Below, one piece after another: positions 9,204-61,238 of a stretch of 64,000 nucleotides of DNA. The translations under genes and the position numbers were made by a program. Below the pieces are notes generated by a model. It had not been told where the DNA came from. It saw only the letters and a program-made list of their open reading frames with translations, and searched no databases. The number at the start of each line of letters is the position of its first letter. Position 1 is the stretch's first letter. Source of the stretch: Paramecium tetraurelia (lineage: Eukaryota); the NCBI GenBank assembly GCA_000165425.1, contig CT868019.1:310001-374000 (forward strand), in the 5' to 3' direction.

Positions 9204-12200
9204 TCAAGCAACGAATTATTAGACTTCGTCATCATTAGTATACTAGGCTACAACTACAGAACTTTTAGATTTCTTTAATTTTTGAAGACTCCTCTTGGCA
9301 TTTTGTTGAATTAAAACAGCAGCCATATATTGACCACTATCAAATTCAGTTTCTAAATTAGAAACAGGAGAAAAGGCTTTTTCAATCAATGGCTGAAGTT
9401 TCATCTTAATAATGTCTTTGGAGATTTCAAAACTAAAAATTAAATTAATTTTTACTTCGATATAAATCCACTTGATTCTAAGAAATCTTGAGCTGCACAA
9501 ATTAGTGCTTGATGGTAAAAATACATATTCTTGCCATTCAAATTATATACAGGTAAGTTCAATTAAGCCATGCGAATTCTCTATTGGGCTGCTGAATATT
9601 TCAATTTGGACCACTAAAATATAAAAGAACACAATTACTCCTAAAGGTTGTGGTAATGCAATCATAAATTATGTGAAATATTTACATTGCATAAAACCAG
9701 TAGCATTCTTGTCATAATCCTTCCACTATTGTTGAAAGTTCTCTACATCTAGCTTTTTAATAGGAGCATTTTCCTCCTTGCTTGTATTTTAAAATCCCTA
9801 TTAATTAATAATTAAGAAGACTTACTTCTATAATGATAGCAACAAATAAGTTCAACATAATCAAAGAAACTATGATCATAAATATAATCATTAATAATAT
9901 TCCCCCAACATTTCCACATCCCATAAAGCCATATTCAGCATAATTAGCATAATCATTAAAATCAAAACAAATATCATTTGGCTATGCAGTTCTAGCCGTA
10001 TCCATCATTACTAAATTCCAATCTTCTCCAGTCGAACATTTAAATAATGTAAATAAACTAACTCCAAAAGAACTGAAATTAGAATTACCTGTAACTCCTT
10101 CACCTCTTTTTACATAGGGGAATAAATTCATAAAAACAACAGCGAATATAAATAACATTATTCCTAACAGACCACCAACACTCACCAATCCAGGTAAGGT
10201 TACCAAGAATGTGCCAAATATAATTCTTAAATTCTTAGCACTCTTTATAAGTCTTAACACTCTGAAAATTCTGAATGTTCTTAAAATAGATGTGGCTGTA
10301 CCAACATTACTCAAGACATTACTCTACTCCAATATTACACCTAGAATTGTGAGAAGCACAACTGTGAAATCGAAAACATTCCAACCTGATGTGAAATAAA
10401 ACTTTCTATAAACTATTAACTTCAGTATTGCCTCTATTGAAAAAATAGCCAAAAATATCCAATTCAAAATTTAAATCGCATCTGTTAATTCTTAGGGAGA
10501 TCTTAAATATTAGATCATCATAACGCAAGTGTTCAAAATTATAACACTCAAAATAAATATCTCAAATTTATCAGAAGATATAATATCATTGAGTTATCTA
10601 ACAGTCTTGTGTTTTGAGATTTTGAATTTCTCGATTGGAACACTTGAATAAATCTTTTGTTGTATTTCATACCATTCTAATTCCTATTTACTTAAATCCC
10701 TCATCTAGCTTAACCTGTCTTTTTCACTTTAAAAAGCTTCAACTATAACTCCTGCAAATAAATTGATTATAAAAAAGGAACCAACAATTATAAAAAATAC
10801 AAAATATAATGCCCATGCATATGCATTATTTTCCTATGGATTAAGATCAATGCCTCTGCTATCAATTCCATCAGACATTAAATTAATCCATCCTTCAGTT
10901 GTTGATATTACAAATAGAGTAATCATGGCATTCAACACATTATCGAAATTGAAATTTTTATTTGACCAAGATCCCCCTTTATCAAAACATTCTAATTTAT
11001 CATTTACATCCTCTACATCACAATGGTAATAAGCCCCTTTAAATTAAGTTACTCCAAATATCCCAAACAATAAAAAGAAAATCAGACAAACCAAAGCAAT
11101 ATTCATCATCTAAGATAAACTGTTGAATAAAGCATTGATAGACATTTTTAAATCCTCATTTCTAACTATCAATCTCAGAGGTCTTAGTACTCTAATGACT
11201 CTTAAAATTTTGATCTTTGAAAATGTTTATGCTTGACTTTCATCAAAGGCTAAGGATGAAAAAATGATAACAACAAGATCTAAAATATTCCCTGGGGATC
11301 TAATATAACTATCTGGTCCATTTAATATGAATCCCTTGCTTATTATTTTTAGTGCAGCTTCACAAATGAACAAGGCTGTAATTATTTCGTCAATTACATT
11401 CAAAGTTATATTATTAGATGACGAGAGTGGATCATCCAATGCCAATAAAATACTTGAGATTATGATAATAGTTAAAATAAAGAATTCAAAATACTTATGA
11501 TTTATTAATTTGCTAACTCTAATTCTAATTTTATTTTAAGGTGGAAATATAAACAAGGATACTCCTTCCAGCTAAGACTAATTTATGGTGCTATTAAAAA
11601 CTATTGCCGATGCCATGAATTATGATGATATATTCTTAAATCTTGTAGCCGAATTGTTGTTTGTTTATTGGTTAGATGCAGATTTAATCACTTAAAAGGA
11701 TTATTACACCTACTCTGGTGACACTTGATTTACTTTAATACTTTAATGATTTTCTGCCATTGATTAATCATGTCTACTTGATTGAAGATTATTGTTTTCT
11801 TCTATAGATTAACTCTATTCTACATTGGCCTCATGAAAATTATTAATCAAAATAGCAATGAATAGCTTCAATAGAATGAAGTTTCCAAATATAATTACTA
11901 CCACAAAATAAATGACTGGATATATTGATTCTAAGTCATACATAAAAGTATAGGCAATCGTATTCCAAGACTCATTAGTCAGCAACATAAATACTACCAA
12001 CATTGAAGACAAATAATTATTAAAGTTGTATCTGTATGGTGTTTTGTATGCAAATAATTCCATCCCCAAAAGAGCTGCAACAGACATAAATAACAATAAT
12101 AGAATAATAAAATAAGCAATGCCACCTACTGTTGCTGCAATAGCAGATAATAATTTTCTAAAACTGCTCCATGTACGTGCTAATTTAAATAATCTAAATA

Positions 12201-14108
12201 ATCTTAATGTTCTAAATGCCTAGATAGCTGAGAAACTACCTCCACTTGAATTATTGCCTGCACTACTAAGTATCCATTCAATCAATGATAGAATGACTAT
12301 TACAGCATCAAAGATATTCATTGAATCCTTTAAATAATTAGTATCGAATGCTATTAGTTTCAAAGTCATTTCAATTGTGAAAATTACTGTGAATACTTAG
12401 TTTGCTATATCCAAAATATCACTTTCAGTTTTAGTAATAGGATATCTGTCTAAAGACAAAGTAATTGTATTTAAAATGATAATGGAAGTTATAAAGGCCA
12501 AAAAATACTTATTTTCTATGATGACAATTAAAATTAATTGAAATTACCTAAACTTAGATTATTTTAATTTGAAACTTCTTTTCTTTGATTATCTGCGTGA
12601 CTATTAAATTTGTTCAAGAGTGTTGCTCTTGGAAATTTACTATTACAATTATTGTTCACCATTGTTTTAATTATCTGGAATTTTAATTTGATTTAATTCA
12701 TTCAAATTTTATGGTATTTCTTCGTTTATTTATTATTCATGCTCTTATTGTTGATTTTACGTCTAATTTCCATTTACAATATTGCCGGTCAATGCAATTG
12801 GATCCTATTATTGTTCTCCTTCTCCTTCTTCTGCATTCTATTCCAACTCTTCCTCTTCATTATCCTCTTATTGTTGGGATGAAGCTGATGCCTATGAATT
12901 CTTAATACTCGACCTCATTTAAGCAGCCATAAAACTATCATTGATGACAGCCAAAATTAAATTAACTACAAAGAAGGATCCCAAAAAAATTAGCAATAAG
13001 AAATAAATGTAAACTATGGCTGTTGATAATGCTTCTTAGTAAATAAAAATTAACTTGGTCCAACCTTCTGTTGTTAAAGCTTAAAATATAGTGAAAGTAG
13101 CTGAAATAATATTATTGAAATTTGTATAGCCATAATTAAAGGTTTCATCATCTGATTCCTACTATGGTAGATTATAAGTATTTGGATTCCCACAATATGT
13201 TCCATCAGGACAATTTGAGGAATCCTAGCATAATTTCGTGTAGTTTGAGGCTACCCATTCATTTCCCACAGGATGTTCTGTCATTCTACATCTGTTTTCT
13301 AATGCACCCATAAATATTTGCAATCCTAATATTCCAAAAAGGATTATGATAAATAGTAAAAAAATAACAACATTACCCAAAGCAGGCAAAGAATCCAATA
13401 ATGTTATTATTAGAACTTTCATCTGCTTCAATGAGTTTATCGATCTTAGTGGTCTCATTATTCTAATGATTCGAATTGCTGATACTCTGGCAGAAATGAA
13501 AAGTGATATGATTCCTGTTATTACTACAATAAAATCTATAAAGTTCCACCCATCTCTTAAGTACGTTTATTTGTCTAGTAAAAACCCCATGGCTATCATT
13601 TTCAAAAGGAACTCTATTATGAATATTGCTGTAAATATGTATTCGAAACTGTCTGTCCAACTATTTGGTGCTTCTGAATCTGTCTCTCTCCAGCTGTAGT
13701 CTTATGTTGCCAATAAAATCGAATTCAAAAAGATGACGGTGATGATGAACCTATCAAACCAGCTAATATGAAATTTAACTTATAATTACATCCACTCAAT
13801 CATCCAAATTGCCCATAACCTAATTTTGTTCTCAGCATCGAATAAATTCAATGACTTTCTTGTATACTAAAGATAATAACCATCTACATACTGACAATAG
13901 TTTCCCATGCACACTAAATTCTACTAAATCGCCAGGATCATCCTTGCTTTGTCCAATCACCTAATTTTTATATGATCAACTTTTTACATGATTCACTAAA
14001 CTTGATAGGTGAATGAGTCTCTTTTAGTTCTATTAAGGCTAGCTCTGCGTTGCGGCTTCATTTTGAACTTCTAGTTATGCTGAAATGTATTATACCTTAA
14101 TCACTCAT
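9204..14108 (-). CDS. Voltage-gated calcium channel alpha1 subunit (4x6TM, EEEE selectivity filter)
   Basis: Four S4 segments (e.g. [25 protein letters not shown]). Pore loops LTTEGW (DI), LTNESW (DII), STTEGW (DIII), STGEDW (DIV). C-terminal IQ-like [11 protein letters not shown]. Start inferred through tiny introns at the 5' end. Confidence 0.93.
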
Positions 14109-14177
14109 AATTTTATAATAAATGCTTGCAACTATTTATAATAGAACTCAACTAAAATTTTATAAACCAAATCAAAA

Positions 14178-15731
14178 TCAGTTCTTTTGTAAATTTTGGA
14201 ATAAATTACATCCAGTTTGAGTATTTAAACTAAAATTAAACAGCCCACCTACTTAATTCTACTGGACTTGTTCTTTTGGTTATTAAGTAGGGAGGTTATT
14301 ACCAAATAAGGAGGTTCCTATGTTAGGTTATGGCAAAATTGGAACACTCTATGTGGGTTAAGATTATTGTAAAAACAAATTTTATTTATTATTATTAGAT
14401 TAATCTTCATTTATAATGGGTGTTGTTGTTGAATTTCCAAATAATCCAGCACTATTATTATTTAACAAGCTGTCAAATAATCCTCCCTTTGAATTTGTTT
14501 AAGCACTAGAGTTGATTCCAAATGTGAAACTTGAAGGGAATAAATTTTTGTTGACACTTGAGCCGTTTTAATTATCTTAATTTTATTAATCAAGACTGAG
14601 ATCAGGAATTTAAGTTATATTAGAAGGTTGAGTTTAATTTTATTAAAATAAAGAGATTTACTATTATTATGATCTTACTAATTATGGTTATTATAATTCT
14701 TAAGGTTAAGGTTATGCCTATTATAATAATTATTATTATTACTATTACTATTAATTATTTACAATTTATAAGCTATTATTTGATGTCTATGCTTGAAGTT
14801 AAGGTATTTGATTTAATTAAAATGTTATGACATCATTTGTATTATTTGTCTTTTATTTTTAAAATAATAGATTATTATTTTATTATGGTGATAATAATTT
14901 TGAACCTTTAGGGGATGGATATTTTGATTGTTCATATTCATTAGGTTTTTATTAAAACAATAACTTACCAAAAATATTATTTTCAGATGGTCCATTAAAT
15001 TAATTTTGCTATTCTTTTGTCTATTCATAAGTATTTTACACCTGTATTGGAAATTATAATTAAACATTTGTATTCTCTGCTAAGCCTTAAGCCTCTTATA
15101 TCTATTCAGCTTGAGTAATAACACTTGTGATGCAATTATCAGATTCTTTCTTAAAATCTTAGATTTCTGGGACTTCTTTTAAGTTTGAAGATTCAAACTA
15201 TGTTAATTTTTTGTCAGAAACCTTGTTGCTAGAATTTTGGAGAATTTATTTCGGGCTATCCAGAGGGAAAGAATCATCACTATTGATCTTTGAGTTTTTT
15301 CTAAATCTTTTTGCTTCTTGGTTCTATTTTGTAAAAGAGAAATCCTTGTTACTTTCATTTAATTTTCCATCCTTTTTACTAAGAACAGGTAACATATCAA
15401 ATTATTTTGTATTTTCAATATAAGTTTTCTCTAGAAAATTTTCTTACTTTACTATCTCTAATATTGTTTTCCTTCTTCTATATGAATTTATATCAAAATC
15501 ATCTGAACTTGAATCTGCATCCTCTGTATAAATTGGTTTTATTATTGCTTTTTTGTCTTCGTTCACTTTTATTTTTTTATATGGAGCCACATTCATAATG
15601 AGATATTCAGATTCTTAATCAATTAAGTTCTACAAGTAATTTTATCTCTATCTTTCTCTATATTTTTTTATTAATAGATAAACATTCCAACCAAAGAAAC
15701 TAAACATTGTTGCAGTTAAGGTGAATTCCAT
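14178..15731 (-). CDS. Protein with an N-terminal transmembrane segment and a C-terminal FG/Q/N-rich region (Pom121-like nucleoporin candidate)
   Basis: Continuous ORF MEFTLTATMFSFFGWNVYLLIKKYRERQR..., then basic clusters (YRRRKT, AKRFRKNSK), a Q/N-rich linker and the motifs NIFG, FTFG, GGLFD, GLFG, SLFG, GGLFN. Confidence 0.7.
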
Positions 15732-16285: not shown

Positions 16286-18255
16286 TCAATATTAGCTTAT
16301 TTAACTAATTTCTAGTTAAACATTTAATTATCTACTTAATGAGGCAGAATTCAATTTATCTCTATTGGAAACTGAACTTAAGTCATCATTCACTTTAGCT
16401 ATTACATCTTCATTTTTGGAAAGATTTTCAAACAAATTTACTAAATCTTCATCTAAAAATTCAAGTAGTTAATGATCTGTATATGTTTTGTCCTTTTTAT
16501 TTTTAAGTTTTTTATAACTAGAAAAAGCTGACTCTAATTTAAGTTTCATAGGCATTTCATCTTCAAGCATAAATAAATATTATTTTTATTATTCCAAAGC
16601 TTTAATTTTATCGGATACCTTTCTATTAAATAAATCAGCTGGAATTATAGGTTTAGGGATACAATTAAATATATTTAACTATTCATTTGAGAAAAGCACA
16701 TATTTTAACTTATCAAATTCATAGATTTTACTTATTATCAATGCCACATCTAATTTTTATTAACATTTAGTTTTTGCATATCTAATTTATTATTTAACCT
16801 TTCTTTTACAACAAAATGCGACTAATAATATATCAATTATTCCTAAATTTAATTGCTATTTGGATTGCGTTAAATATTTCTAAATTTCAGATTAATTTCT
16901 TCTATTTGAATGTAATTTATTTGGTTTCCTTCTTTTCTGATTTTAATTAATAACATCATATTATTATTAAGAAGATTCTTTGTAAATAGTTTAGCTTTTG
17001 CTTATGTCGCTTAATGATTCTTCTTTTATTTCATCTTTAAATAATTAAGATCTCTCATTGATTTCAAATCTGAATAGTTTATTAACAAGATGCACATTCA
17101 TTAAAGTTATTACTATTGGAGTAACAAATATCTTAAACAATAGAACTGCAACATTCCAAAATCCTCCTATTTTTCCCAGAATTGCCTAAATTTTGATATA
17201 ATTTCTTTAATAAGTAGATTATTTTCCATCCAAATAAATAAAATGGTTAATTAAAAATATATTATTGTAAGTAGATGATTCCTCTCTCCATTAATTTTAA
17301 ATTAAACCAAAAAATGAATTTCGATTTTCCTAAACAATTCCATCATCAGTAATTATTTAAACTTATTTTAGAGTTTAATAGATTGATCTTGATGTTTTTA
17401 GGGAGAATGAAGCTTATTGCATGCTTTGGATTTGTGAAAAAGGCTATTGGAACTCATTCAATTATAATAAATTATCACTCAAATGAATACCATAATATCC
17501 TGCTTTTGCTAAATCCTGAATTTCTTCAATAGGAGCACATTCATTATAGGTTGTCGTGTTGTGACATATTTGGACCTATATTTGAAGATATTAAAACTCC
17601 ATAGCTTGCAATACTCCCTATAACTTCTAAAATATTTATTTTTAATTCTTACTGGTGGATTCGCTTCCCAGGCCTCATTCTGTAAGCATTGAACTGTTCC
17701 TAATTAAAGTTTTCCAAAATACTCTTTTTAGCTTTCAGTAACTGCATGATTAACTGTACAAGCTTCGATTGGATATTCTTAGCATCTAAATAATGTAACA
17801 TGTCATACTATTAAATAACTTATGTAGTATTATCTGTTTTATTAAAAATCCTCTCTCTTTTACATGTATTTACAGAAATGCTAAAATACCTCTTGACATT
17901 CTTAAATGGTTAAGTGTTTAATCCAGATAAAGTTACTGCAATTGTAAAATTTTTATTCATCAAGGGAATTTCCTAAGAATATATTATAAAAACTTACACT
18001 ACTTTCTAGAAGTTAAGAATCATATTGGATTACATTTGGGTCACTGCGATTAAATAACTTTTCAAGTTCAATCCATAAATACAAAAGACAAAATCCAAAA
18101 ATGATTAGTGTGGAAAAAGCTCCGAAGCTTGTAGAAAATCTTTCTTTTTTTAATATTGTGAACATGGGTAGTTATCCAAATATATCAAATTACATCTACA
18201 GAGCATTGAATACAGCTCTATATGAAGAAATATTAGACTTCTAATATTTTAGCAT
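16286..18255 (-). CDS. Ciliate two-transmembrane protein with a large Cys-containing ectodomain
   Basis: FDIFGQLPMF...KKRFSTSFGAFSTLIIFGFCLLYLW (TM1), then DPNVI, ectodomain ICHNTTTYNECAPIEEI, and YQRNYIKIQAILGKIGGFWNVAVLLF (TM2). Several tiny introns; TGA at 16286-16288. Confidence 0.8.
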
Positions 18256-23238: not shown

Positions 23239-23329
23239 TAATTAGAGTATAAATTTGATGATGTAATTAAAAAAATTATTAACAATAAAAATTGAAATAC
23301 TATATCTAATCATATTTATTCGTGTATGT

Positions 23330-24854
23330 TCATAATAATTTTATGGAAAATCTTGCTTATGTTTTAAATCCAATCCATCTGCTGTTAAAACAAAATTTCA
23401 AATTACGATCGATCTTACAACCCTAAAATCAGTAGCTCATTTTCATCTATTTACTCTTCCAAAATCATTAACGCTTTTAAATTTTCATCTAAAACAATCT
23501 TTCTTTAATACAATTCCACATTAATTTATTTAACCAATTTAATATCTTCAAAATAGTCCATGTATAGGATTTAAATAAAACTTGCTATGATAGTAACAAA
23601 AAATTTAGTTAGCTTTTCATGGATTCGATTATGATATTTGATATTATTAAATATAATCAACATATTCTGTATAATAAGGCGAAACAATAAGTATTCTCCA
23701 ATTATCATCTTTTCTTATGGACTGGATATTTTAATACTGTTTTTCAAATAAAAATTGGTTCTTTTAGCTACAAATAATGGTGCTTTAGAATTTTAAGATA
23801 AAAACAATGACAAATACATCAAATTGACAATTAATTTTGGTAACACATTCATTTAAGTCATTTTTTCAAGTCTAATAAAGTAATCTAAAGTTAATTTTAA
23901 TATTAGTCCTTGTCTATAAATAATATTATCATGTGAACTAGGATCGTAATCTTTAGTTTGGCAATGCTTTAAGAATTCAGGTCTACAGAGTTCATAGATG
24001 AATTCATCAAAAACATTTTCTACCCATTAATAAAGTTGTAATTTTATTTGATCTTCATTAATTAATAAGATTTTCTATTTTGTAAACTAGAATTTCTCTC
24101 TAATTTATTTTAATTTTTTTGCTTATTCAATTCTTTTTACTCTAAACTCTTTGCTCCATCTAACATAAGCAAGTACAACCAAAAAGATTACCTTTAGTCT
24201 CGTGACATATTTCTTAGGTTTTTAAGGAATTGTTATTTTTTTAATTTTAAACTCATAGTCGTTTGAATTATCTCTTATGGTAGATTAAGGTATAACTTTG
24301 ATAGTATTTTCTGATTGTTTCTCCATTTTCTCCATTCTCTCTATTTTTTCGATTCTCTCCATACTCTCTAGTTGATTTTCTTTTAAATAATTTCTGAATT
24401 TATTTGTCTCAGCTATTAAATGATGCTATTTTATTTAGGAGATAATTGATTCATTATTTATGATTTATTAAGCAATTTGGTTTTAGTATTAGCCATTCAA
24501 TGCTGGTAATTTCTATTTTGTTACTAGTTTGAAGGTGTTTTCTACATCATGCTAGATTTTTTCTACCTATTATTGAAGCACTTCATTCTGGAATTTCAGT
24601 TGCCTATTTTAAATTTCTAACAATTAATGTCTAAGTAATTCGTTTTGAGTATCCATGACTTATTGCAGTTTTCCTTAATATTCAAGTTGGGATTGAGCTA
24701 AAAGGCTTTTCCTTAGATCATTTTCAAATGAGGATGAATAATGTTCTCTATTGCTTTTTATTGAAAGGCTATTGCTTCTAGATGAAATTTAATATCGTTT
24801 GTGTAAAGATGATCGATTATTTTACCATAAATACTATGGTTTATTAGGATTCAT
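23330..24854 (-). CDS. Hypothetical protein, FVAKRT-motif paralogue B
   Basis: MNPNKPQYLW...; KVIFLVVLAYVRWSK; LSLFLSQNSKAPLFVAKRTNFY...EKMIIGEYLLFRLI. The 3' end is approximate. Confidence 0.7.
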
Positions 24855-24911
24855 GTTTGCATCTAATACTTTTTATTATAAAAACAGCATATATATAAAT
24901 AAATATAATTA

Positions 24912-26450
24912 TCAAATATTATTTTAAGATGCTAAATTGGTTACACAATTTCCGAATAAAGTTGAAATATCTTAATACCACTTCTAATTTTATTTTATTA
25001 AGTTTTCATAAAATTCGAAATTATTCAAACCTTAAATAATATTCTCATTTTATTCAATAACTTCATCCTCTGTAATATTTAGATCTTAATATTTATTTTT
25101 ACTTACATTTAATTTTTTCTAAATAATTTTGGATATATTTGGTTAATACCTTTGCATTTCCTTAAAGTGATTCATAAAGAGAATTTATATCAAACTGCAA
25201 ATAGATACAAGCTAAAATTTCGATTCAGCTAGATGATGATCATTTATGCATACTATCTAATTGGACTATTATATTATTTTCTCAATTATAAATGAAAAGA
25301 ATATGTAATCACAAATAACAAGTATTTATTCATTTTTAATTTATTTTGTCCTTATTCTTTTGGCCACAAATAAGCTACCCTTTTTATTGATTTATAAGAT
25401 ATGGTATTAGGCTAATAATAAAATTTCTTTGTTGAAATTAAGTGCTTTTGTCATCTCAAATAGATTCTGAAAAAATAATTACGAAAAATTCATTATCCAT
25501 TGTTTGCGCTTCAATATAAATTTCTTATCATTTGGGTTTTAAGTTTATTTAAAGTGTTAACTAAAACTACTCGATTAAATAGTTTGTAATAAATTTTGCA
25601 TTAATTTTTCAAACCATTCAATTTTTATTTCTTCAATTTTTTCTTAATTTAAGGCATCCACTCTTGCTCTTAAATCCTTTATATTTTGTATAAATTTAAC
25701 TTTTTTTTATCTCAAACGTTTAATTAATCTAAATATAAATATACATATTAAGCCCCACTATTTAAATATATTTTAAGGCTATTATATTTTCTTTTCATAC
25801 TCTTCCTTAGCTAATTGATAAGGTTTGTCGAATCTGCTTTAAAAGAAATTAATATAGTTAGGAATTTATCTACCTTATCTGCTTCCCATATGAGAATAAG
25901 TATTTTTTGAATCAACAGATATTCTAAAATCTAAGACCTAATTGCAATCAATCATTTTATTTTTTGATGTAACAGGGATTTCTTCTTCTAATAAATTAAA
26001 GTGCTGATATCTTTGATTTTTAATGTTGAAGGTTATTGACCTTTCTCGATTACTGGCTTCATCTTTAAATGTACTATTTATTTGTTTCTAGTTCACAGTT
26101 GAGAATTAGTTAAACTGATAATTTAGTTCATTGAAGTTTTTCTGAGGTTTTATTTTTGCAGCATTTACAATTACAGAATGTCTTTATCCAACAAATAGAT
26201 CTCTTTCTTTTTGGTTGACTCGTTCTTTGAGAAATAATTTATTTTAAATTTCTTTTTCTATCTGATTAGATTATTACTATAGTGATTTTCTTCTTTCTTG
26301 TTCTTTTTCAAAACTTCTTTTCATTATTTCACTTTCGATATATTTAGAAAGTTGAGGTAATTAGTTCTTTTAGTAATTTTTAATAGTTTGGCCAGGTTTA
26401 TACTCCTGCATTGGATTTCTATTGGTATTAAATAAATATGAATGAAACAT
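24912..26450 (-). CDS. Hypothetical protein, FVAKR-motif paralogue C
   Basis: MFHSYLFNTNRNPMQEY...; NKKGSLFVAKRIRTKQIKNEQILVICDYIFF; TGA at 24912-24914. Confidence 0.7.
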
Positions 26451-50404: not shown

Positions 50405-53400
50405 TCACTAAAATTGGAAAGTTTGTTAAGCTTTTGGTTTAGACTATCGTTAAACACTACCCGAATTAATATTAATTCTGTTGTTGTCTCGCAACACATC
50501 ATGTTACACAGCAGGACTTTATGCTTTAGTTTAGATTAAAGGATTATCTTTTTATACAGCATAGAATTTTTGTTTCATAACTAATAAATCTTTTTCCAAT
50601 AGTTTAATATTTAAGGTTTTTTCCTTCTTAATCTTTATTCCTCTGTTAAATTTCTTATTTGCAATCCTAAAATTATAAATTAGTCTTACAATCAACTCCT
50701 AAATAAGTAATTACACAGATTAGATGATCTTGTCTCCATCGCTGCCTTTGATTGTTGAAAATTTATTTTTAACTCCACTTAAATTCAAAATTTAATTAAG
50801 TTTAGTCATCTCATTATTGAGTCTCTAATTTTCAACTATCAATTTTTGCTATGATAATCTAACAACATAAATACCATATCTAATTTAGATGTATTATATT
50901 AATTATCTGAATCAGTGTTTTTTCTTGTCTATTATTATTACTATAATAGTTTATTTTTTTCTTCAATTTCCTTCTATAATTATTCTGATAAGTATAGTTT
51001 TTCTTATTTCAAACAAGAATTTCTCTTGTTTTATAGTATTTAAGTATCGTATTTTTTATGAAGGATTATTATGCCCTCCAAGTTAAGCAATATCTTTTTG
51101 CATCTCTTCAATTTACTTATAGAGCATAGATCTTTCATTGTTCGATTTGGTTAATTTTTCATGTTACTCTTGTAATTCCTTCTTTAATTTACCATTCTCA
51201 TCTTCTAAAGCGTGCATTTGCATCAGTGCTTGATCTTTTTGGTCTTTCATTTATTCATTTTCATCTTCTCGTTCTTAATTTTAGGACTATTAAGATAAAT
51301 CTAACAATTACTAATATAGCATTATGTTCAGCCTCTAATTTTAGATACTAATCCTTGATATCATTAATTTCCTTCTCTTATTACTTACAAAACTCCTTTG
51401 CTCTATCATGAACATTTTTCAGTGTCTCTTCGTTCTACAAGAGAGCTTACTCTAATTGTACAATAATCTTTAAATATAATAATAAATTATACTTATTATT
51501 TTTTATCGATCTTCTGTTTTAACTCATTGTTTTCTTTTGAAACTTTTTCAGCAATATGACTATATTGTTCTCTTATTTAGGACTCTTATTTCATTTAAGA
51601 TTCTAATCTAGTGAATTGATCCTTTAAGAGATTGTATTTATCTTATTATTCACTGACTTAGATGTTTTATAAGTCATTTTATTTTTGGATTGATTGATAT
51701 TTATGCACATTTTCCTAAATCTAATAACTACTTTCTTCTAATTGATTTTTCAATTAAATGTTGGCATTTTCAAGACCTTAGATTATTTTCTAATAATAAA
51801 TAATAATATTACTGTAAACTTATTTTAATCAGACTTTAATTTATCTTTGAGCTATTGAATGTCTTTTTGAGTTTACTGATTTACATCCTCTTTTGTTTCA
51901 AATGCACATTATAATCCATTTACTTATTTATTTAACTATTCAATTTATTGATCCTTCTATTATAATTACTTCTAGTGAATATCCAATTAATCTACTAACT
52001 CTTAAACTTCCTTTTTGTGTTAATCTTCATACTTTTTTAAATGCAGAGAATATTGTTTAATTTCTAATTCTAATTACTTAGTTAATTTCTTAACGATTGA
52101 TTTATTTTCATCAACTTGAGATTATTTTTAATCCAATTCAACTCTCATCTAATCTATTTCTTCATGTTATGAATCAATATGTTGATTTAATTATGATATT
52201 TCCTTTTTGAGTTAGGAATTATCCTTAGAGGTTAATTCTAATTATTGTTGTAGGTTTGTATTTAGATGATTTAATTATAACTTTAATTAATCTACCTATT
52301 GTTCTTTTTATTGCAAATCATTTAGACTAGCATTTAATCGTTATTCAAGTTTGTGGATCTCCTTTTACTTATCATTGATTTAGAGTTTTAAGATGTTGTT
52401 ATCAATTTCCATTTAATCTGTTTCCTTCTTCCAAATTTCAGAACTTTTATCAAGAATCTGATTTTATTTATTAAATTCTTATTGCATGAATTCTAATTCT
52501 GAATCTTTTTCATTGATGTTATTAGTCAAACATTGAATTTGAGATTATAATGAATTAAATTTAATTGACCATTCATTACATTATTGTTCTAATTGGTTTA
52601 TCGTTTATTTAAACTTATTTGATTCACATTCAACCTCCTTTATTTTATCATTTAAAGCTGTTTTTTCATTAGTCAATTATTCGATTGTTCTTATCTTAAT
52701 TTATAATTTTTAAGTCATATCTTACAATTTACCTTACTATTAAATTTCCATTGTGTTTCTGCTTTATTAGTTCTCATTCTCTATCGAGACTATTTTTTAT
52801 TATAACTATTGTATTTCCTTTGACTAGCTCTCTATTTTGGACTTATGCTATAACAAATCTCTTTTCAATTCGGAATTAACTTAGTCCTTTTGTTCCAACC
52901 TAGCTTACAAAGAGATGTAGAGTTCATGAACTTGGTTATAATGATCCGATGTTTCTTGAATTACAGCCTGCTTACTTTCTAATTGCTTTTACAATAAGTC
53001 TACACTGGACATCTGCTCTTTTTGAATATCTTCAAACTCTAATTTCTATGTTTCTATAATGCTCTCCAAATGCGAAGCCCTTTACGTTTCATTTTGCAAT
53101 TTTTAATTTAACAACTATAAAGTTTATCAAATAAATTACATTTATTTAGAATTCCTATGAAGACTACAATTCAGAAATTTAATTATCTTTTTCTTTAATT
53201 ATGCAATTCAATTAATGGATCTAAAAGTTGTAAATAATATATTACTTCTTAATTCAAAATGCCTAAATCACAATCATTTTTTGCACTCAATTGCGATAAG
53301 AACAATTCAAAATCCTTTTTCTATTGTTTCAATTAATCTTAGTAATTCTTCTCTAAGTCTGAATTTTAAATTTATTAATTTTATTAAAATACAATCATTT

Positions 53401-56203
53401 CTTCCTAATAATTTTATTAAGTTTATTAAAGCTATAATTAAGTATTTAAAAGCTCCTAATTTTTTTACCTTAATTCTTGAACCAAACCATCTTTTTCCTA
53501 TTAAATTTCATTCTTAGTCTTCGATAAGAGAGTATTCTCTTATTATAACAATTAGTTATCATTTTATACTTATTATAGTTAAGTAAATAATTCCAATTCT
53601 GAACTCTCCAATTTGCACACTGATAACCTTAACTAGTCTTAAACTACCCCTAATTCATTTTAATAATTAGAACATTTTTATTTTAGATTTTCATTTTCAG
53701 ATTCTAATTCTTAAATTTCTTTCTCATTTTATTGAAGTTTAGTTTTTTAATCACTTAAATCATTTTTAAATTAAGTCATATTACTTTCATAAAATGCTAG
53801 TTATTATTTTAGTTCTTAAATTGTAATATCATTGTCAACAATTATTTAATTAATTTATCTTAGTTTTTCTTCATTTTCTGTTAACTCTTAAACAAGCTAC
53901 GTATTTTAGTTTTTTTCATTTAGAATTTATTATTTGAATTCTTAATTTTATTAATTGAGCTATTGATAATTATTAGCTTATAATTGATTTTAATCCTTCA
54001 ATTGAATTATTTATTCTTCAAATTAAGATATCTATTACTTAAATTCATCTTAGAACTATTAAATATTTGTTTATGATTGTTCATAATTAATTTCAATCTC
54101 CTATTTTTGAGTTACAATTTATTAGTTTTCAACCTTCAATTATTAAATAACCTACTCTGAGTTATTTAATATTTCTTCTAATTCTTAATTTGAATTTTTG
54201 AGTTCTTAATTCAGGTCACTAATTCTGCTTTTTAAATCTAAAATTTATTTATCTCTAACATCAATGATTTAATCGTTTTCATTAAATGTAATTCCATTTT
54301 CAGCTAATTTTTGTAGAATTGTTTTTTCAATCTCTTTGATTTAATCTTCCATTTATACTAATTTTTATGTTTACTCTGATAACAACTTCTCTTTATATTC
54401 TGATTATGTTTCAAGTTCTTTAAATTTATCTAAAGTGACATATTATGAATTAAATTAAGTATCTATTTGCTATTGAAATTGTCTTCTTTCATTCAAAGAG
54501 TTCTATCAAATAAATACATAAAATACTTAAACAGTTTCAACTATTTCTTTTAGTAAATTGAGATTTGTATCTACTTATACCTAAACCTTGGATACTGTTT
54601 ATGTAGCTCCTTACTGCTCTTTTAAAGTTAGGTTTTCGTAAAAAGTTTTCATAACTAAACCTTGACATTGCAAGGCATATGCTAATTATTATTAAATTTA
54701 TTGTTGTATTTCATCTGCTGATTGATTTAGTTTTAATTTTTATATTTATTCGTTCTGCAACTTAATAACAAATTTTAACTATTGCTCTAACTATTATCCT
54801 AATTAGAAGCCTTCTTTTAATTATTTAATTCCATTCAAATATTTTTCAATTTCTAAAAATAATGCAGTTTCACTTTCTGTTGATTATTCTAAATAGCACT
54901 TCAAGATTTCTTCAAGCTTAATGTACTTTTAATCATTAATCATCAGGCTTTCCAATTCTAAAGATTGTAAAACTAGATAATAATATGAAATTGAATACAT
55001 TGTTCATTAATTTGGGATTATTATTATTTCTATTCAAATTTCTTTGGTGATTCCCATTTCTGTTATTGAGTAACACTTTTGGCAAGTTCTTATTTGAGTC
55101 TTTTGATTTCATTTTTCAGACTCTCTAAATTACCACTTTCATCTTCGTTGATCCTTGCTTTGTTTTTAACTTATTTAACTCTTTTAGAAAACAGAAGAGT
55201 CGACAAGGTTTCTTGATAGAATTGTTGAGATTATTAAATATTGGCAATTAGATGAGTTCTTGAATTGCCTCCCAAAGAATCCTTGAGTAGAAATGTCAAT
55301 TTAGAGTCTCTATAATGTACATAGGATTGATTGTCTTCAACAAGAGAATTGATTACATTGCCCAAGATGTGTAAACTTTTATTTATATTGCAACCTTCTC
55401 TCAACCTCTCTCCTTAAACTTAAGATTGCTTCTACCTTTCACTACCAGCCAGATCTACAAAATGAAATCTCGAAAATCTATGATTGATGACCTAGGTCTG
55501 AGATGACTATCTTCTTGATTCAAGTTATATAGTAAACACACTGTGTGATCTTGATGATTCTATGTTCATCTAAGTGGATGATATGTGTCTATTAAGACTC
55601 CCTCTCTGGAGTACTTCCAATGATTCAGTCACATTTGTACAAACTTCTTCGCTTAACTATTCTACATACACACCCTTTTTGAGATCTTCTCTCAATTATA
55701 AGTTTCCTAACTAGGGATTTAAAAGATCTATTATATGTTCATTATAGATTTCCAAATAACTGCATTTGACTAAATATTCTACATATTCTGAGGAGTCCTC
55801 CTAAATGCAATTAAAAAGAAAATCAATCACTCTTGGTAATAAGCCTGGCTGCTTCTATGTACCCATCATTGTGTATGTTTTACCACTTCCAGTTTATCCA
55901 TAGACAAACACACATCCATTATAACCATCTAGACAATTGATTGCTTATTATTTTCCCACTATATTAAATATGTCTTCTTAGGTTGAGTCTTGTTAAGCTA
56001 CGTAATCAAAATAGAAATATTTCTAGTCTTGCTGTTATTATTGATTGCCCTCAATAATAATAGTATTTTTTAAATTGGAATCCAACTTAATACATGATCT
56101 TCCATCTTCTAGTAAAGGTCTTTGATAATTCATAAAGGGATGCTTACTTAATTCTAATAGAAACTTGAATATTGTCTCGTTCCGCCTTAAATTTATCTGT
56201 CAT
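50405..56203 (-). CDS. Kinesin with N-terminal motor and very long coiled-coil tail (kinesin-12/KIF15-like)
   Basis: [66 protein letters not shown], followed by more than 1300 aa of coiled coil. Confidence 0.92.
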
Positions 56204-58349: not shown

Positions 58350-59844
58350 ATGTTAAGAAGATTAACTGCGTCAGTCCCAATAGTCCACAAATTGTACTTC
58401 ACTTTCTCCGTCAATGAAGGTAATCGAATGTTGCTAATCAGAATACAAGATCTAAATCCTCAATCGACTCAAACAAATTAAACATTCCGATTCTCACAAA
58501 GACATCGTCTCCAATGGTTACGTTGAAAATCTATCCATTGACCAAGGTATTCCAATGACCAAGTACTTTAGATGGAAGAGTCATCATTGATCTCAAATTG
58601 GACTAAGATTACAGAAAGATGAAGGCTCTTTGCTCAGATGCCCTTAAGCAATTCGAATGGATTAAGAATTTGGATATTCGCATGGCCCCAAAAAAAGAGA
58701 ATGTATTTACCCAAGCCAATACTCAGAAAAGAGGCAATCTCTAAAATGTGAAGAAGATCATTGCAGTCTCTAGTTGCAAAGGAGGAGTGGGTAAAAGCAC
58801 AATTGCATTGAACCTTACTTTTTCCTTGTAAAAATTAGGCTTCAATGTGGGAATATTTGATGCTGACGTATATGGTCCATCTCTCCCTACCTTAATTGGC
58901 AAAGAGAAATAGTAATTATATGCTCCAGAAGACAAACCTAAAGAAATACTTCCCATAGAATTCAACGGTGTTAAAACCATGAGTTATGGTTATGCAAGTG
59001 GCAATTAAAAAGCCATCATCAGAGGTCCTATGGTTAGCAGCATCGTTGTTTAACTAGTACAACAAACTCAATGGCAAAATCTAGATTATTTGGTTGTCGA
59101 TATGCCACCAGGAACAGGAGACATACAAATAAGTTTATGTTAAGAATTAAATTTCGATGGAGCAGTAATTGTTACAACTCCCCAGAGATTAAGTTTTATA
59201 GATGTTGTAAAGGGAATAGAGATGTTTGATGTCCTAAAAGTGCCAACCCTAAGTGTGGTTGAAAATATGGCTGAATATGTCTGTCCAGATTGCAATCATG
59301 TTCATAGGCCATTCGGATAAGGCTATATGAACATGCTACAAAAATAATTTGGTATTGCCACAGCAGTCTCTATTCCCTTATATGGAGATATTTCTAAATA
59401 TTCAGATTTGGGAAGTCCTGTAGTACTGACATTGCCTGAAGATCACACCATCAATAATATTTATAGACAATTAGCCAATAATGTTGTTCATGAGTTAAGC
59501 AGAAGCGATTTGACTAAGACTCCTACTGTCAGATATGATACAGGCAAAAGAGTGATCATTATTAGGGATTTCGATGGCAAAGAAAAACCTATAAAATCAG
59601 TTGAACTTAGATCTAAATGCAATTGTGCTTTATGTGTGGATGAATTTACTGGAAGAAGATTAAATTAAGTAATATTCATTCACAACTTATTTAGAATCAA
59701 TAACTAGATCAGGAAGTCTATCCATACAAGATTGAACCTAAAGGAAACTATGCTGTTGCAATCGTTTGGTCTGATGGTCATCGTTCTTCAATATATCCCT
59801 ATAAAAGATTATGGAGTGATGAGATTATTGAACATAAATCATGA
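58350..59844 (+). CDS. HCF101: HCF101-type Mrp/NBP35 Fe-S scaffold ATPase (DUF59 - P-loop - DUF971), putative mitochondrial presequence
   Basis: MLRRLTAS N-terminus; [12 protein letters not shown] (DUF59-like); [38 protein letters not shown]-terminal [17 protein letters not shown]...[19 protein letters not shown] (DUF971/GBBH-N-like). Confidence 0.9.
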
Positions 59845-59882
59845 TAATTATATATATTAAAATAAGCGTATAATAAAGGTTG

Positions 59883-61238
59883 TCAATTAATGTATTATTC
59901 TAAGGTTTCTTTTAATACATTTTATTGTTCTAAGCTTAATTGATGAGCCTTTGCAAATCCTTTTATTACTTGTTCTATGTCATCTCCTTCTCTAATACAA
60001 ATTCTAGCTTTCCTATTTTTTGAAATCCTTATATCCACATTCAGTAACATATTCTTTGGATTGGAGACTCGTTTACTTAAATCAAATGGTTCAGGCACAG
60101 TTTAATGAGGCCTATTTTGAATATTGGTTTGTTCCATAGAATAGAAGTTTTCTTTTTCATGTTTCATCTGTCTTGCCTTGGTCATTCTCTCTAAAATTGC
60201 AGATTCTCCTTTCACAGGCTTAAATGAATATCTCTATTTATTTGTTAATTTTGGTTTAAAGGTACATTCCATTAACTCTTCTTCATCCCTTTATTTATTC
60301 AAATTGTCCTTCAACTTTTACTTATGCATTTTAATTGCTTCAGCATTTTAATACAACCTATTAAATGTACTTACATTGTCTTGTCTTTTTGTTTAATTCG
60401 ATGTCAATTAAGGCTTAAATAGACATTCTGGATCATCTTGTATATAGGATTCCAACTATCTTTTCTTCTCCTACAATACTTTAGAATGCTCATATAGCAC
60501 TTCAAATCTATTTATTGTATCTGATAAGTGGGTGTCAAATTATTGTCTTTGTTTCCCATTATTTTAACTATTATTATTATTCCAAGACTCCTTTTTTGAT
60601 GAGGATTGTCCTCTTGATCCAGTTGAAAACCTCACATTTAATAATTTAAATTTATTAGTCAATCTAAACATCAATTCTTATAACTCTTCAAAATTTATCA
60701 CCTATTTTGGTATATTCTAATCTTCTAATTCAACATTTATAACATCTGTTAATAGTACTATTGATTAGGTTTGTGTTAATTATTTTTCCAATAATATCAC
60801 AAGAATATTAAATACAAATCCAATAAATGCACTTTCTAAATCTAATCCTAATGTTAATAATTTCCATAAGTCAATTGACACATGATCATTTTTTGTTGAT
60901 ATCCCTAAATCAACTAGCACATTACAAAATCTTTCATAGTCCAATTACTCTTCAATTTAATGACGATTCAGTACTGTATTAATTTGGGTTTCTAATTTCT
61001 TCAAAAGGATTTTTTAGGAGTTATAGTCAATCTTAACTTTATTTGCTTATTATTTAATTTCTTCATTCTTCTCTTCTTGTTTTTAATTGATTCTTTGCTA
61101 TTTTTCTATTGCTTTATTATATAGTGAAGAAAAATGATCTTGTTGAATTTATCCACTGATTTCATAAGCATTCAAACTATCACAATTTCTCAAATATTAA
61201 GATTAATCGCCAGATTCAATATTTTAATCATCAATCAT
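59883..61238 (-). CDS. Hypothetical protein with ECxFKP repeats
   Basis: MIDDQNIESG...; ECLFKP and ECTFKPKL motifs; C-terminus LLNVDIRISKNRKARICIREGDD...FAKAHQL. Confidence 0.75.

Follow-up and report, generated by a model that had tools for sequence, protein, structure and literature searches.

A predicted disordered, single-pass membrane protein of Paramecium with a POM121-like layout and a possible role at the pore membrane

The gene and the layout of its protein

The gene described here lies at 14178..15731 on the reverse strand of a 64,000-nucleotide stretch of DNA from Paramecium tetraurelia, a member of the aurelia complex (assembly GCA_000165425.1, contig CT868019.1, positions 310,001 to 374,000), which we refer to as the window and in whose coordinates all features are given. 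Its product appears to be a Paramecium-specific, disordered, single-pass membrane protein and, in a reading that we put forward tentatively, may play a role like that of POM121, a pore-membrane nucleoporin with Phe-Gly (FG) motifs. The open reading frames (ORFs) of the window were translated with the ciliate nuclear code, NCBI table 6, in which TAA and TAG specify Gln and TGA is the stop. Under this code, the ORF list, codon usage and colinear Paramecium orthologues delimit a complete, intronless coding sequence of 517 codons followed by a TGA stop (14178-14180), in which 68 TAA/TAG codons are translated as Q.

Length by itself is weak evidence of a gene at 14178..15731, because the DNA is AT-rich (G+C is about 25% nearby) and TGA is the sole stop. 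The same region also yields an overlapping 471-aa ORF in another frame of the reverse strand (14105..15520), together with a 258-aa ORF on the forward strand, and such long spurious frames lend some support to the explanation that 14178..15731 is itself a chance frame in AT-rich DNA and no functional gene. Spurious ORFs of this length come cheaply under the ciliate code, and it is therefore homologues, rather than ORF length, that provide the evidence for a gene. Annotated proteins of four other Paramecium species are colinear with the window protein from end to end; the orthologue among them is 84-85% identical to it and the paralogues 53-57%, and their conservation is patterned, the N-terminus being near-invariant and the linkers free to vary. 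Codon-usage scoring, trained on the Pfam-supported ORFs of the same window, ranks this frame at the top of the six in each of the three gene parts tested, and it contains no TGA codon, whereas the remaining two frames of that strand have 2 and 22. Judged by this comparative evidence, the frame is a genuine gene, and the chance-frame explanation is effectively refuted.

Eight GTA...TAG strings of 21-33 nucleotides within the ORF were considered as introns and rejected. Six of them have lengths that are not a multiple of 3 and would shift the frame, and the annotated orthologue P0002 can be aligned through the other two, which keep the frame, one lying within the poly-Q linker (near codons 324-330) and the other over the conserved QVGGLFNF motif. 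For these reasons the gene is taken as intronless.

A preliminary description of this locus had proposed a Pom121-type transmembrane FG nucleoporin from an N-terminal hydrophobic segment, NLS-like clusters (NLS, nuclear localization signal), a disordered linker and a C-terminal series of FG-type motifs. Every motif that it quoted is present in the 517-aa protein: FSFFGWNVYLLIKKYRERQR at residues 10-29, YKKIK at 51-55, YRRRKT at 84-89 and KRFRKNSK at 141-148, followed by NIFG at 252-255, FTFG at 402-405, GGLF at 416-419 and again at 495-498, GLFG at 429-432 and SLFG at 474-477.

The protein begins with a single hydrophobic segment, FTLTATMFSFFGWNVYLLI (residues 3-21; 15669..15725, on the reverse strand, as are all the features of the protein that follow), which is a probable signal-anchor or transmembrane (TM) helix. 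The Kyte-Doolittle (KD) average over 19 residues reaches its maximum of 1.37 starting at residue 3, and the best value elsewhere, beyond the N-terminus, is only 0.31; this implies one candidate membrane segment, of moderate hydrophobicity. The same segment scores 1.33-1.65 in the paralogues, two of which (P0004 and P0009) bear the UniRef label 'Transmembrane protein'. It is preceded by Met-Glu alone, with no K or R, and followed by the basic flank KKYRERQR (residues 22-29; 15645..15668), with 5 K/R in 8 positions. According to the positive-inside rule, the side of a membrane helix that carries the basic flank is the cytoplasmic side, so the protein beyond the helix would face the cytoplasm or the nucleoplasm.

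An AlphaFold2 (AF2) model, built from a 10-sequence alignment of the family, contains a single helix at residues 4-47, in which the hydrophobic segment lies, with a predicted confidence (pLDDT) of 54-71 by 10-residue blocks. The pLDDT falls below 50 in 436 of the 517 residues, so the model has no folded domain. Directly after the end of the predicted helix stands PYKKIK (residues 50-55; 15567..15584), a K-K-x-K motif that is invariant in both of the deep clades described below. The classical NLS pattern is K-K/R-x-K/R, which PYKKxK fits, and the motif is a putative NLS. Two further basic clusters, YRRRKT (15465..15482) and KRFRKNSK (15288..15311), occur only in the clade of the window protein; the sister clade has QERIQT at the place of the first and lacks the second.

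In composition, the remainder of the protein falls into three parts. Residues 22-215 (15087..15668) make up a charged 'stalk' of 34-38% K/R/D/E, with pLDDT mainly below 50 and with conserved islands that include NLIDQES, TILExVxQExF and DFSFTxQNQ. The stalk is followed by a Q/N-rich linker (residues 216-389; 14565..15086) of 43% Q+N and 11% charged residues, within which the NIFG motif (14967-14978) is found, and then by a tail (residues 390-517; 14181..14564) that is rich in S/T/G/P/N/Q, with S/T/G/P making up 34% and charged residues 7%, and that carries FTFG, GGLF, GLFG, NLF, SLFG, GGLFNF and NLFQN. From the stalk to residues 216-517, charge drops from 34-38% to 7-11%, and Q+N in the latter region amounts to 30-43%. 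The protein ends in the motif GGLFNFSLNTQTGCNLFQNLQKN (residues 495-517; 14181..14249), which can be aligned with GGGGLNSKVSVPSGNLLSLLLNN of the sister clade and for which AF2 offers a short helix at residues 508-516 with low confidence. The layout given in the preliminary description, from membrane segment through basic and NLS-like residues and a disordered region to an FG tail, is thus real, with one hydrophobic peak, a basic flank, predicted disorder, and an FG/LF tail.

A Paramecium family of two deep clades

A protein search with the window protein returned four matches, all of them from Paramecium. An exhaustive phmmer search against 1.84 billion representatives (E<=1e-3) also returned four, all belonging to the family, two of which are full-length Paramecium proteins and the other two N-terminal fragments of 61 and 39 aa. 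A search with an N-terminal profile, covering proteins of 332-2000 aa, gave eight matches, every one from Paramecium (P. tetraurelia, P. octaurelia, P. pentaurelia and P. sonneborni), and a search with the tail returned two, both family members. Metagenome scans with the N-terminal profile A2 and with the fragment P0007 produced 250 and 590 stretches that match the pattern, among which no relative was confirmed. As far as these searches reach, the family is found only in Paramecium. The public records of the retrieved relatives give no functional name for any of them. Among the listed matches, none is identical to the window protein, and the nearest comes from P. octaurelia, with 84-85% identity; other P. 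tetraurelia/P. octaurelia pairs of the family are 86% and 90% identical, which is about equal divergence.

A maximum-likelihood tree of 10 full-length proteins resolves two deep clades, each with 100/100 support. To the clade of the window protein belong a first pair, made up of that protein and P0002, a second pair, P0004/P0005, which shares 53-56% identity with the first, and P0003. The sister clade, made up of P0006, P0009, P0010, P0011 and P0012, is 26-32% identical to it. P. octaurelia possesses two members in each clade, which implies that the splits within the family predate the species; their probable source, we presume, is the whole-genome duplications of the genus.

Conservation across all 10 proteins is concentrated in a small number of places. 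In the hydrophobic helix, F13 G14 W15 N16, Y18 and L20 are invariant, as are parts of the basic flank and the pairs L36-I37 and L44-I45. P50 Y51 K52 K53 K55 is likewise invariant in 10/10, across clades that share 26-32% identity, with the form PYKKRK in the sister clade, and PYKKxK is the sole NLS-like motif common to the whole family. Among several invariant islands of the stalk are TxLxxV...F and DFSFTxQNQ, and at the C-terminus G495 G496 N499 G507 L510 L514 are invariant in 10/10 (pattern GG..N......G..L...L). Since the anchor, the stalk islands and the C-terminal end are invariant in both clades, the clades are considered homologous along their whole length. The C-termini of the sister clade (5/5) carry an invariant NDFSFYLQLL-GGGG(G)-(F/L)N-x-K-(V/I)-(S/T)-VPSGNLL-x-(L/I)-LLNN. 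This end motif aligns with that of the window protein, and the conserved C-terminal peptide may for that reason be a binding or membrane-contact element of the whole family. A LIR- or FFAT-like reading of a further stretch, SSSDDFDIN, was rejected because its aromatic is not conserved, the position being occupied by N in P0004 and P0005.

The two clades differ in their Phe motifs, with 3-6 FG, 8-10 LF and 2-5 GLF per protein in the clade of the window protein versus 0-1 FG, 0-1 LF and no GLF in the sister clade. The five proteins of the former retain NIFG, FTFG, GGLF, S/TLFG, GGLFN and the terminal xLFxNL with little or no change, although the subgroups are no more than 53-62% identical to each other. 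The preliminary description had staked its proposal in part on conservation of the FG motifs in orthologues, and within this clade no loss of them is seen. The number of motifs expected by chance was estimated from 20000 composition-preserving shuffles. The whole protein has 5 FG where 0.99 are expected (P=0.002), and residues 240-517 have 4 (NIFG, FTFG, GLFG and SLFG) where 0.81 are expected (P=0.0055). Within the same residues, FG and GLF together number 7, including 3 GLF, and Leu precedes 10 of the 16 Phe as compared with 1.74 expected; each of these two counts was equalled by 0/20000 shuffles. The Phe residues of this region are also preferentially conserved. On the 5-sequence alignment of the clade, 10/16 are invariant as against 80/262 of the other residues (Fisher one-sided P=0.011), and when the same clade is scored on the 10-sequence alignment the figures are 9/16 and 79/262 (P=0.032). 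The corresponding values for the sister clade, 7/20 versus 85/253 (P=0.54), reveal no preferential conservation. The FG/LF motifs of the window protein's clade are non-random and under selection. In this clade only, then, we find a disordered, low-charge domain with preferentially conserved Phe motifs, as is characteristic of FG nucleoporins.

The invariance of both the anchor and PYKKxK, in proteins with and without FG motifs, would also fit a shared envelope-targeting module to which divergent tails are attached. Under such an explanation the protein belongs to the nuclear envelope but not to its pores: it would be imported to the inner nuclear membrane by its NLS-like motif, and the disordered tail would tether chromatin, the nucleoskeleton or condensates. 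Neither Pfam nor AF2, however, detects a chromatin-binding or other folded domain in the protein, and the FG-like flavour of the tail would be left without an explanation. A nuclear-envelope protein away from the pores is accordingly regarded as unlikely.

Comparison with pore-membrane nucleoporins and other anchored proteins

In vertebrate POM121 (PF15229), the parts follow one another in the order predicted for the window protein: a membrane segment at the N-terminus that leaves most of the protein on the pore side, basic motifs of NLS type, and an FG region towards the C-terminus. The window protein differs from it in not matching the Pfam model POM121, in being shorter, and in having far fewer FG motifs, which here are of GLFG/xLF flavour. 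By sequence, POM121 is considered animal-specific, according to the available text of one article (PMC6411479). The closer parallel comes from another ciliate. Tetrahymena Pom121 (TtPom121; TTHERM_00312730) is described as a pore-membrane nucleoporin specific to the macronucleus (MAC), as opposed to the micronucleus (MIC) (Iwamoto et al. 2017, PMC5450191). In the available text of that article, the assignment of TtPom121 was made by a search for TM domains combined with a filter on expression profile; the protein has an FG-repeat region and an N-terminal TM, its N-terminal region bears a MAC-specific NLS, a C-terminal fusion with green fluorescent protein (GFP) is located at MAC pores, a tag placed beside the TM caused mislocalization, and no sequence homology to POM121 is reported (PMC5450191). 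Like TtPom121, the window protein is from a ciliate and combines a single N-terminal TM, predicted here, with NLS-like residues close to that TM, a disordered region, and FG/FX motifs towards the C-terminus. TtPom121, which has been localized both by GFP and by immuno-electron microscopy, is a protein of 129 kDa, as against the 517 aa of the window protein. Other Nups of Tetrahymena have their peak of expression in early conjugation.

The flavour of the motifs also has precedents in ciliates, in whose nucleoporins (Nups) FX repeats are often numerous and classical FG repeats scarce (PMC5450191, available text); in the same article and a second one, GLFG as opposed to NIFN is what separates the MAC from the MIC paralogues of Nup98 and Nup214 in Tetrahymena (PMC5450191, PMC5824931). 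The low-charge, N/Q/S/T/G-rich spacers of the window protein and its GLFG, SLFG and GGLF motifs resemble the GLFG domains of Tetrahymena MacNup98A/B and Nup308. Cohesive FG domains of this GLFG type are also present in yeast Nup100/116 and vertebrate Nup98. Unlike the GLFG Nups, the window protein has only about 10 motifs, many of them LFQ, LFN or LFD; it is predicted to be membrane-anchored, has neither the autoproteolytic domain of Nup98 nor any other folded domain, and showed no similarity to these proteins in the sequence searches. A second pore-membrane protein of Tetrahymena, the MIC-specific Pom82 (TTHERM_00375160), is a single-pass membrane protein with FG motifs, as is predicted for the window protein, and comes from a ciliate with nuclear dimorphism, but its polarity is the reverse of that seen here, with a C-terminal TM, N-terminal FG motifs and a central coiled coil, and it is absent from the search matches. 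According to the Tetrahymena authors, a Paramecium protein of Pom82 architecture had not been encountered (PMC5824931), and the available text makes no mention of a Pom121 in Paramecium.

By these comparisons, the window protein is a candidate analogue in function of both POM121 of vertebrates and Pom121 of Tetrahymena, and not a sequence homologue or member of either family; it is filed as an analogue because the only membership tests open to sequence found no kinship. The layout of POM121 type is genuine and subject to selection. The term 'nucleoporin' is read from that layout, and a role at the pore membrane appears plausible, though with the balance of doubt somewhat on the other side, because the protein follows the POM121 plan and because Tetrahymena Pom121 was assigned by the same criteria. 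In such a role, the helix would insert in the membrane of the endoplasmic reticulum (ER) and nuclear envelope, with Met-Glu alone on the lumenal side and about 495 residues exposed to the cytoplasm or nucleoplasm. Importin-alpha could read PYKKxK, by which the protein would be drawn to, or kept at, the pore or the inner nuclear membrane. The charged stalk would serve as a spacer that holds the tail off the membrane, and the GLFG-like tail would enter the cohesive FG meshwork of the pore and bind transport receptors. A charged stalk joined to a cohesive tail is a pattern seen in FG domains of the GLFG type.

A number of findings weigh against such a role, beginning with the results of the searches for kinship. 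At hmmscan E<=10, none of the 10 family members, the window protein included, matches the Pfam model POM121 (PF15229). The Pfam model Nucleoporin_FG (PF13634) matches one of the 10 without significance (E=5.3), and that one is not the window protein, for which the Pfam scan found no family at all. A profile search of the PDB gave 0 matches at E<=10, the tail-only search recovered family members and no Nup, and neither the exhaustive phmmer search nor the N-terminal profile search, in which TtPom121 was not directly compared, recovered any Tetrahymena protein. The proposal of a POM121-type nucleoporin therefore stands as regards layout but not as regards sequence kinship, either to POM121 (Pfam 0/10) or to any Tetrahymena protein; the accompanying remark that the protein would be too divergent for simple annotation was borne out, as Pfam finds nothing. 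Further points concern the protein itself. Its FG density is low, with 4 FG and about 10 LF in 278 residues, and its size is under half that of TtPom121. PYKKxK lies about 30 residues from the membrane. The hydrophobicity of the membrane segment is moderate (KD 1.37), and signal anchors of the mitochondrial outer membrane, too, combine a segment of this kind with a basic C-flank. Finally, the anchor, PYKKRK and the C-terminal end persist in the sister clade, from which FG and LF motifs are all but absent (0-1 of each per protein), and this indicates that the core function of the family is independent of the FG motifs.

The absence of a sequence tie to nucleoporins, the low FG density, the small size, the FG-free sister clade and the ambiguity of the anchor together make a non-pore membrane a serious rival. 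A signal anchor would then hold the disordered protein in the mitochondrial outer membrane, the peroxisome, the bulk ER or a cortical compartment; its conserved aromatics would be short linear motifs for partners that have no part in transport, and PYKKxK would be a targeting flank or some other binding site. The segment is moderately hydrophobic throughout the family (KD 1.33-1.65); in the window protein, 2 residues precede it and a basic flank comes after it. Anchors of the Tom20/Tom70 type carry this signature, which is also typical of mitochondrial outer-membrane signal anchors in general, and they share with the window protein an extreme N-terminal position and, as predicted for it, a cytosolic bulk. 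The sole near-match in Pfam points to the same organelle: it is to COX14, a single-pass protein of mitochondria, and is found in 2/10 members with E of 0.33-1.8, which is not significant. The dispensability of the FG/LF motifs in the sister clade is also as expected of such a protein, and Q/N-rich disordered proteins are common in this genome, as the other Q-rich ORFs of the window illustrate. On the other side, Tom20/Tom70-type proteins have folded TPR receptor domains, unlike the disordered window protein with its FG-like and NLS-like motifs, and no sequence similarity to them was detected. LF/FG enrichment, low charge, GGLF/GLFG/SLFG contexts and selective conservation of Phe are most familiar from FG nucleoporins, and the most conserved soluble motif of the protein fits the classical NLS pattern. 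Residence in another membrane is thus a possible explanation, if a rather doubtful one.

The two nuclei that a ciliate maintains in a single cytoplasm differ in function. Nucleus-specific nucleoporins account for part of this difference in Tetrahymena, where Pom121 and Pom82 have been proposed as the seeds of the different pores (PMC5450191, available text). The preliminary description had suggested that the window protein may distinguish MAC from MIC pores; such specificity is speculation, which the two-clade split makes testable. An extended form of the pore-membrane reading, which we consider improbable, would hold that the two clades are Paramecium's own nucleus-specific pore-membrane pair, evolved independently of Tetrahymena Pom121/Pom82. 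An ancestral gene with the anchor, PYKKxK and the C-terminal end motif would have split into the two deep clades, one of which, that of the window protein, would have retained or acquired a tail of GLFG-like xLF(G/Q/N) motifs, a flavour that in Tetrahymena belongs to the MAC. This clade and its sister, with PYKKRK and a tail devoid of FG/LF motifs, would then mark MAC versus MIC or developing-MAC pores, and both would help to build compositionally different pores in one cytoplasm.

If the window protein does reside at pores, it would be the first candidate pore-membrane FG protein for Paramecium, and the TM-NLS-FG design would be seen to recur without sequence homology. The FG and FG-free clades would in that case constitute a natural experiment on whether the flavour of the tail sets nuclear specificity. 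A literature search found no paper naming a membrane FG nucleoporin or Pom121-type protein in Paramecium, and a search on the paralogue gene identifiers GSPATT00024319001 and GSPATT00039411001 found none either. Should the protein reside elsewhere, it would be an example of FG-like cohesive tails outside the pore.

Neighbouring genes in the window

The neighbours of the gene are unrelated to it. Directly downstream, at 9712-13941 on the reverse strand, a 1409-aa ORF contains four Ion_trans repeats (PF00520, E=5e-216, 4 stretches) and is, by this domain content, a four-domain voltage-gated cation channel of the Ca/Na type; at its C-terminus the translation seems to run on into an intron or an end that was not spliced. 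The upstream neighbour is a 438-aa ORF without annotation (16286-17602, reverse strand), and a SAM-kinase gene is found further away in the window. Two adjacent reverse-strand ORFs of 526 and 512 aa, at 23310-24890 and 24912-26450, match nothing in Pfam and are tandem paralogues that have diverged from one another, with 25% identity over 317 residues (E=9e-19), a common LFVAKR motif and a hydrophobic segment. The ORFs at 51750-53012 and 53171-54352, also on the reverse strand, are very Q-rich and coiled-coil-like, with 53 and 72 reassigned Gln codons, respectively, and only weak, sub-threshold Pfam matches (Lebercilin, RIMB1_N); both may belong, as exons, to a single long gene for a coiled-coil protein. 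On the forward strand, the ORF at 58619-61090 begins with a P-loop ATPase domain of the NUBPL/ParA type, involved in iron-sulfur transfer (PF10609, E=7e-85, residues 43-289). Because this ORF continues as low-complexity read-through, its true end, or a splice site, probably falls near residue 350.

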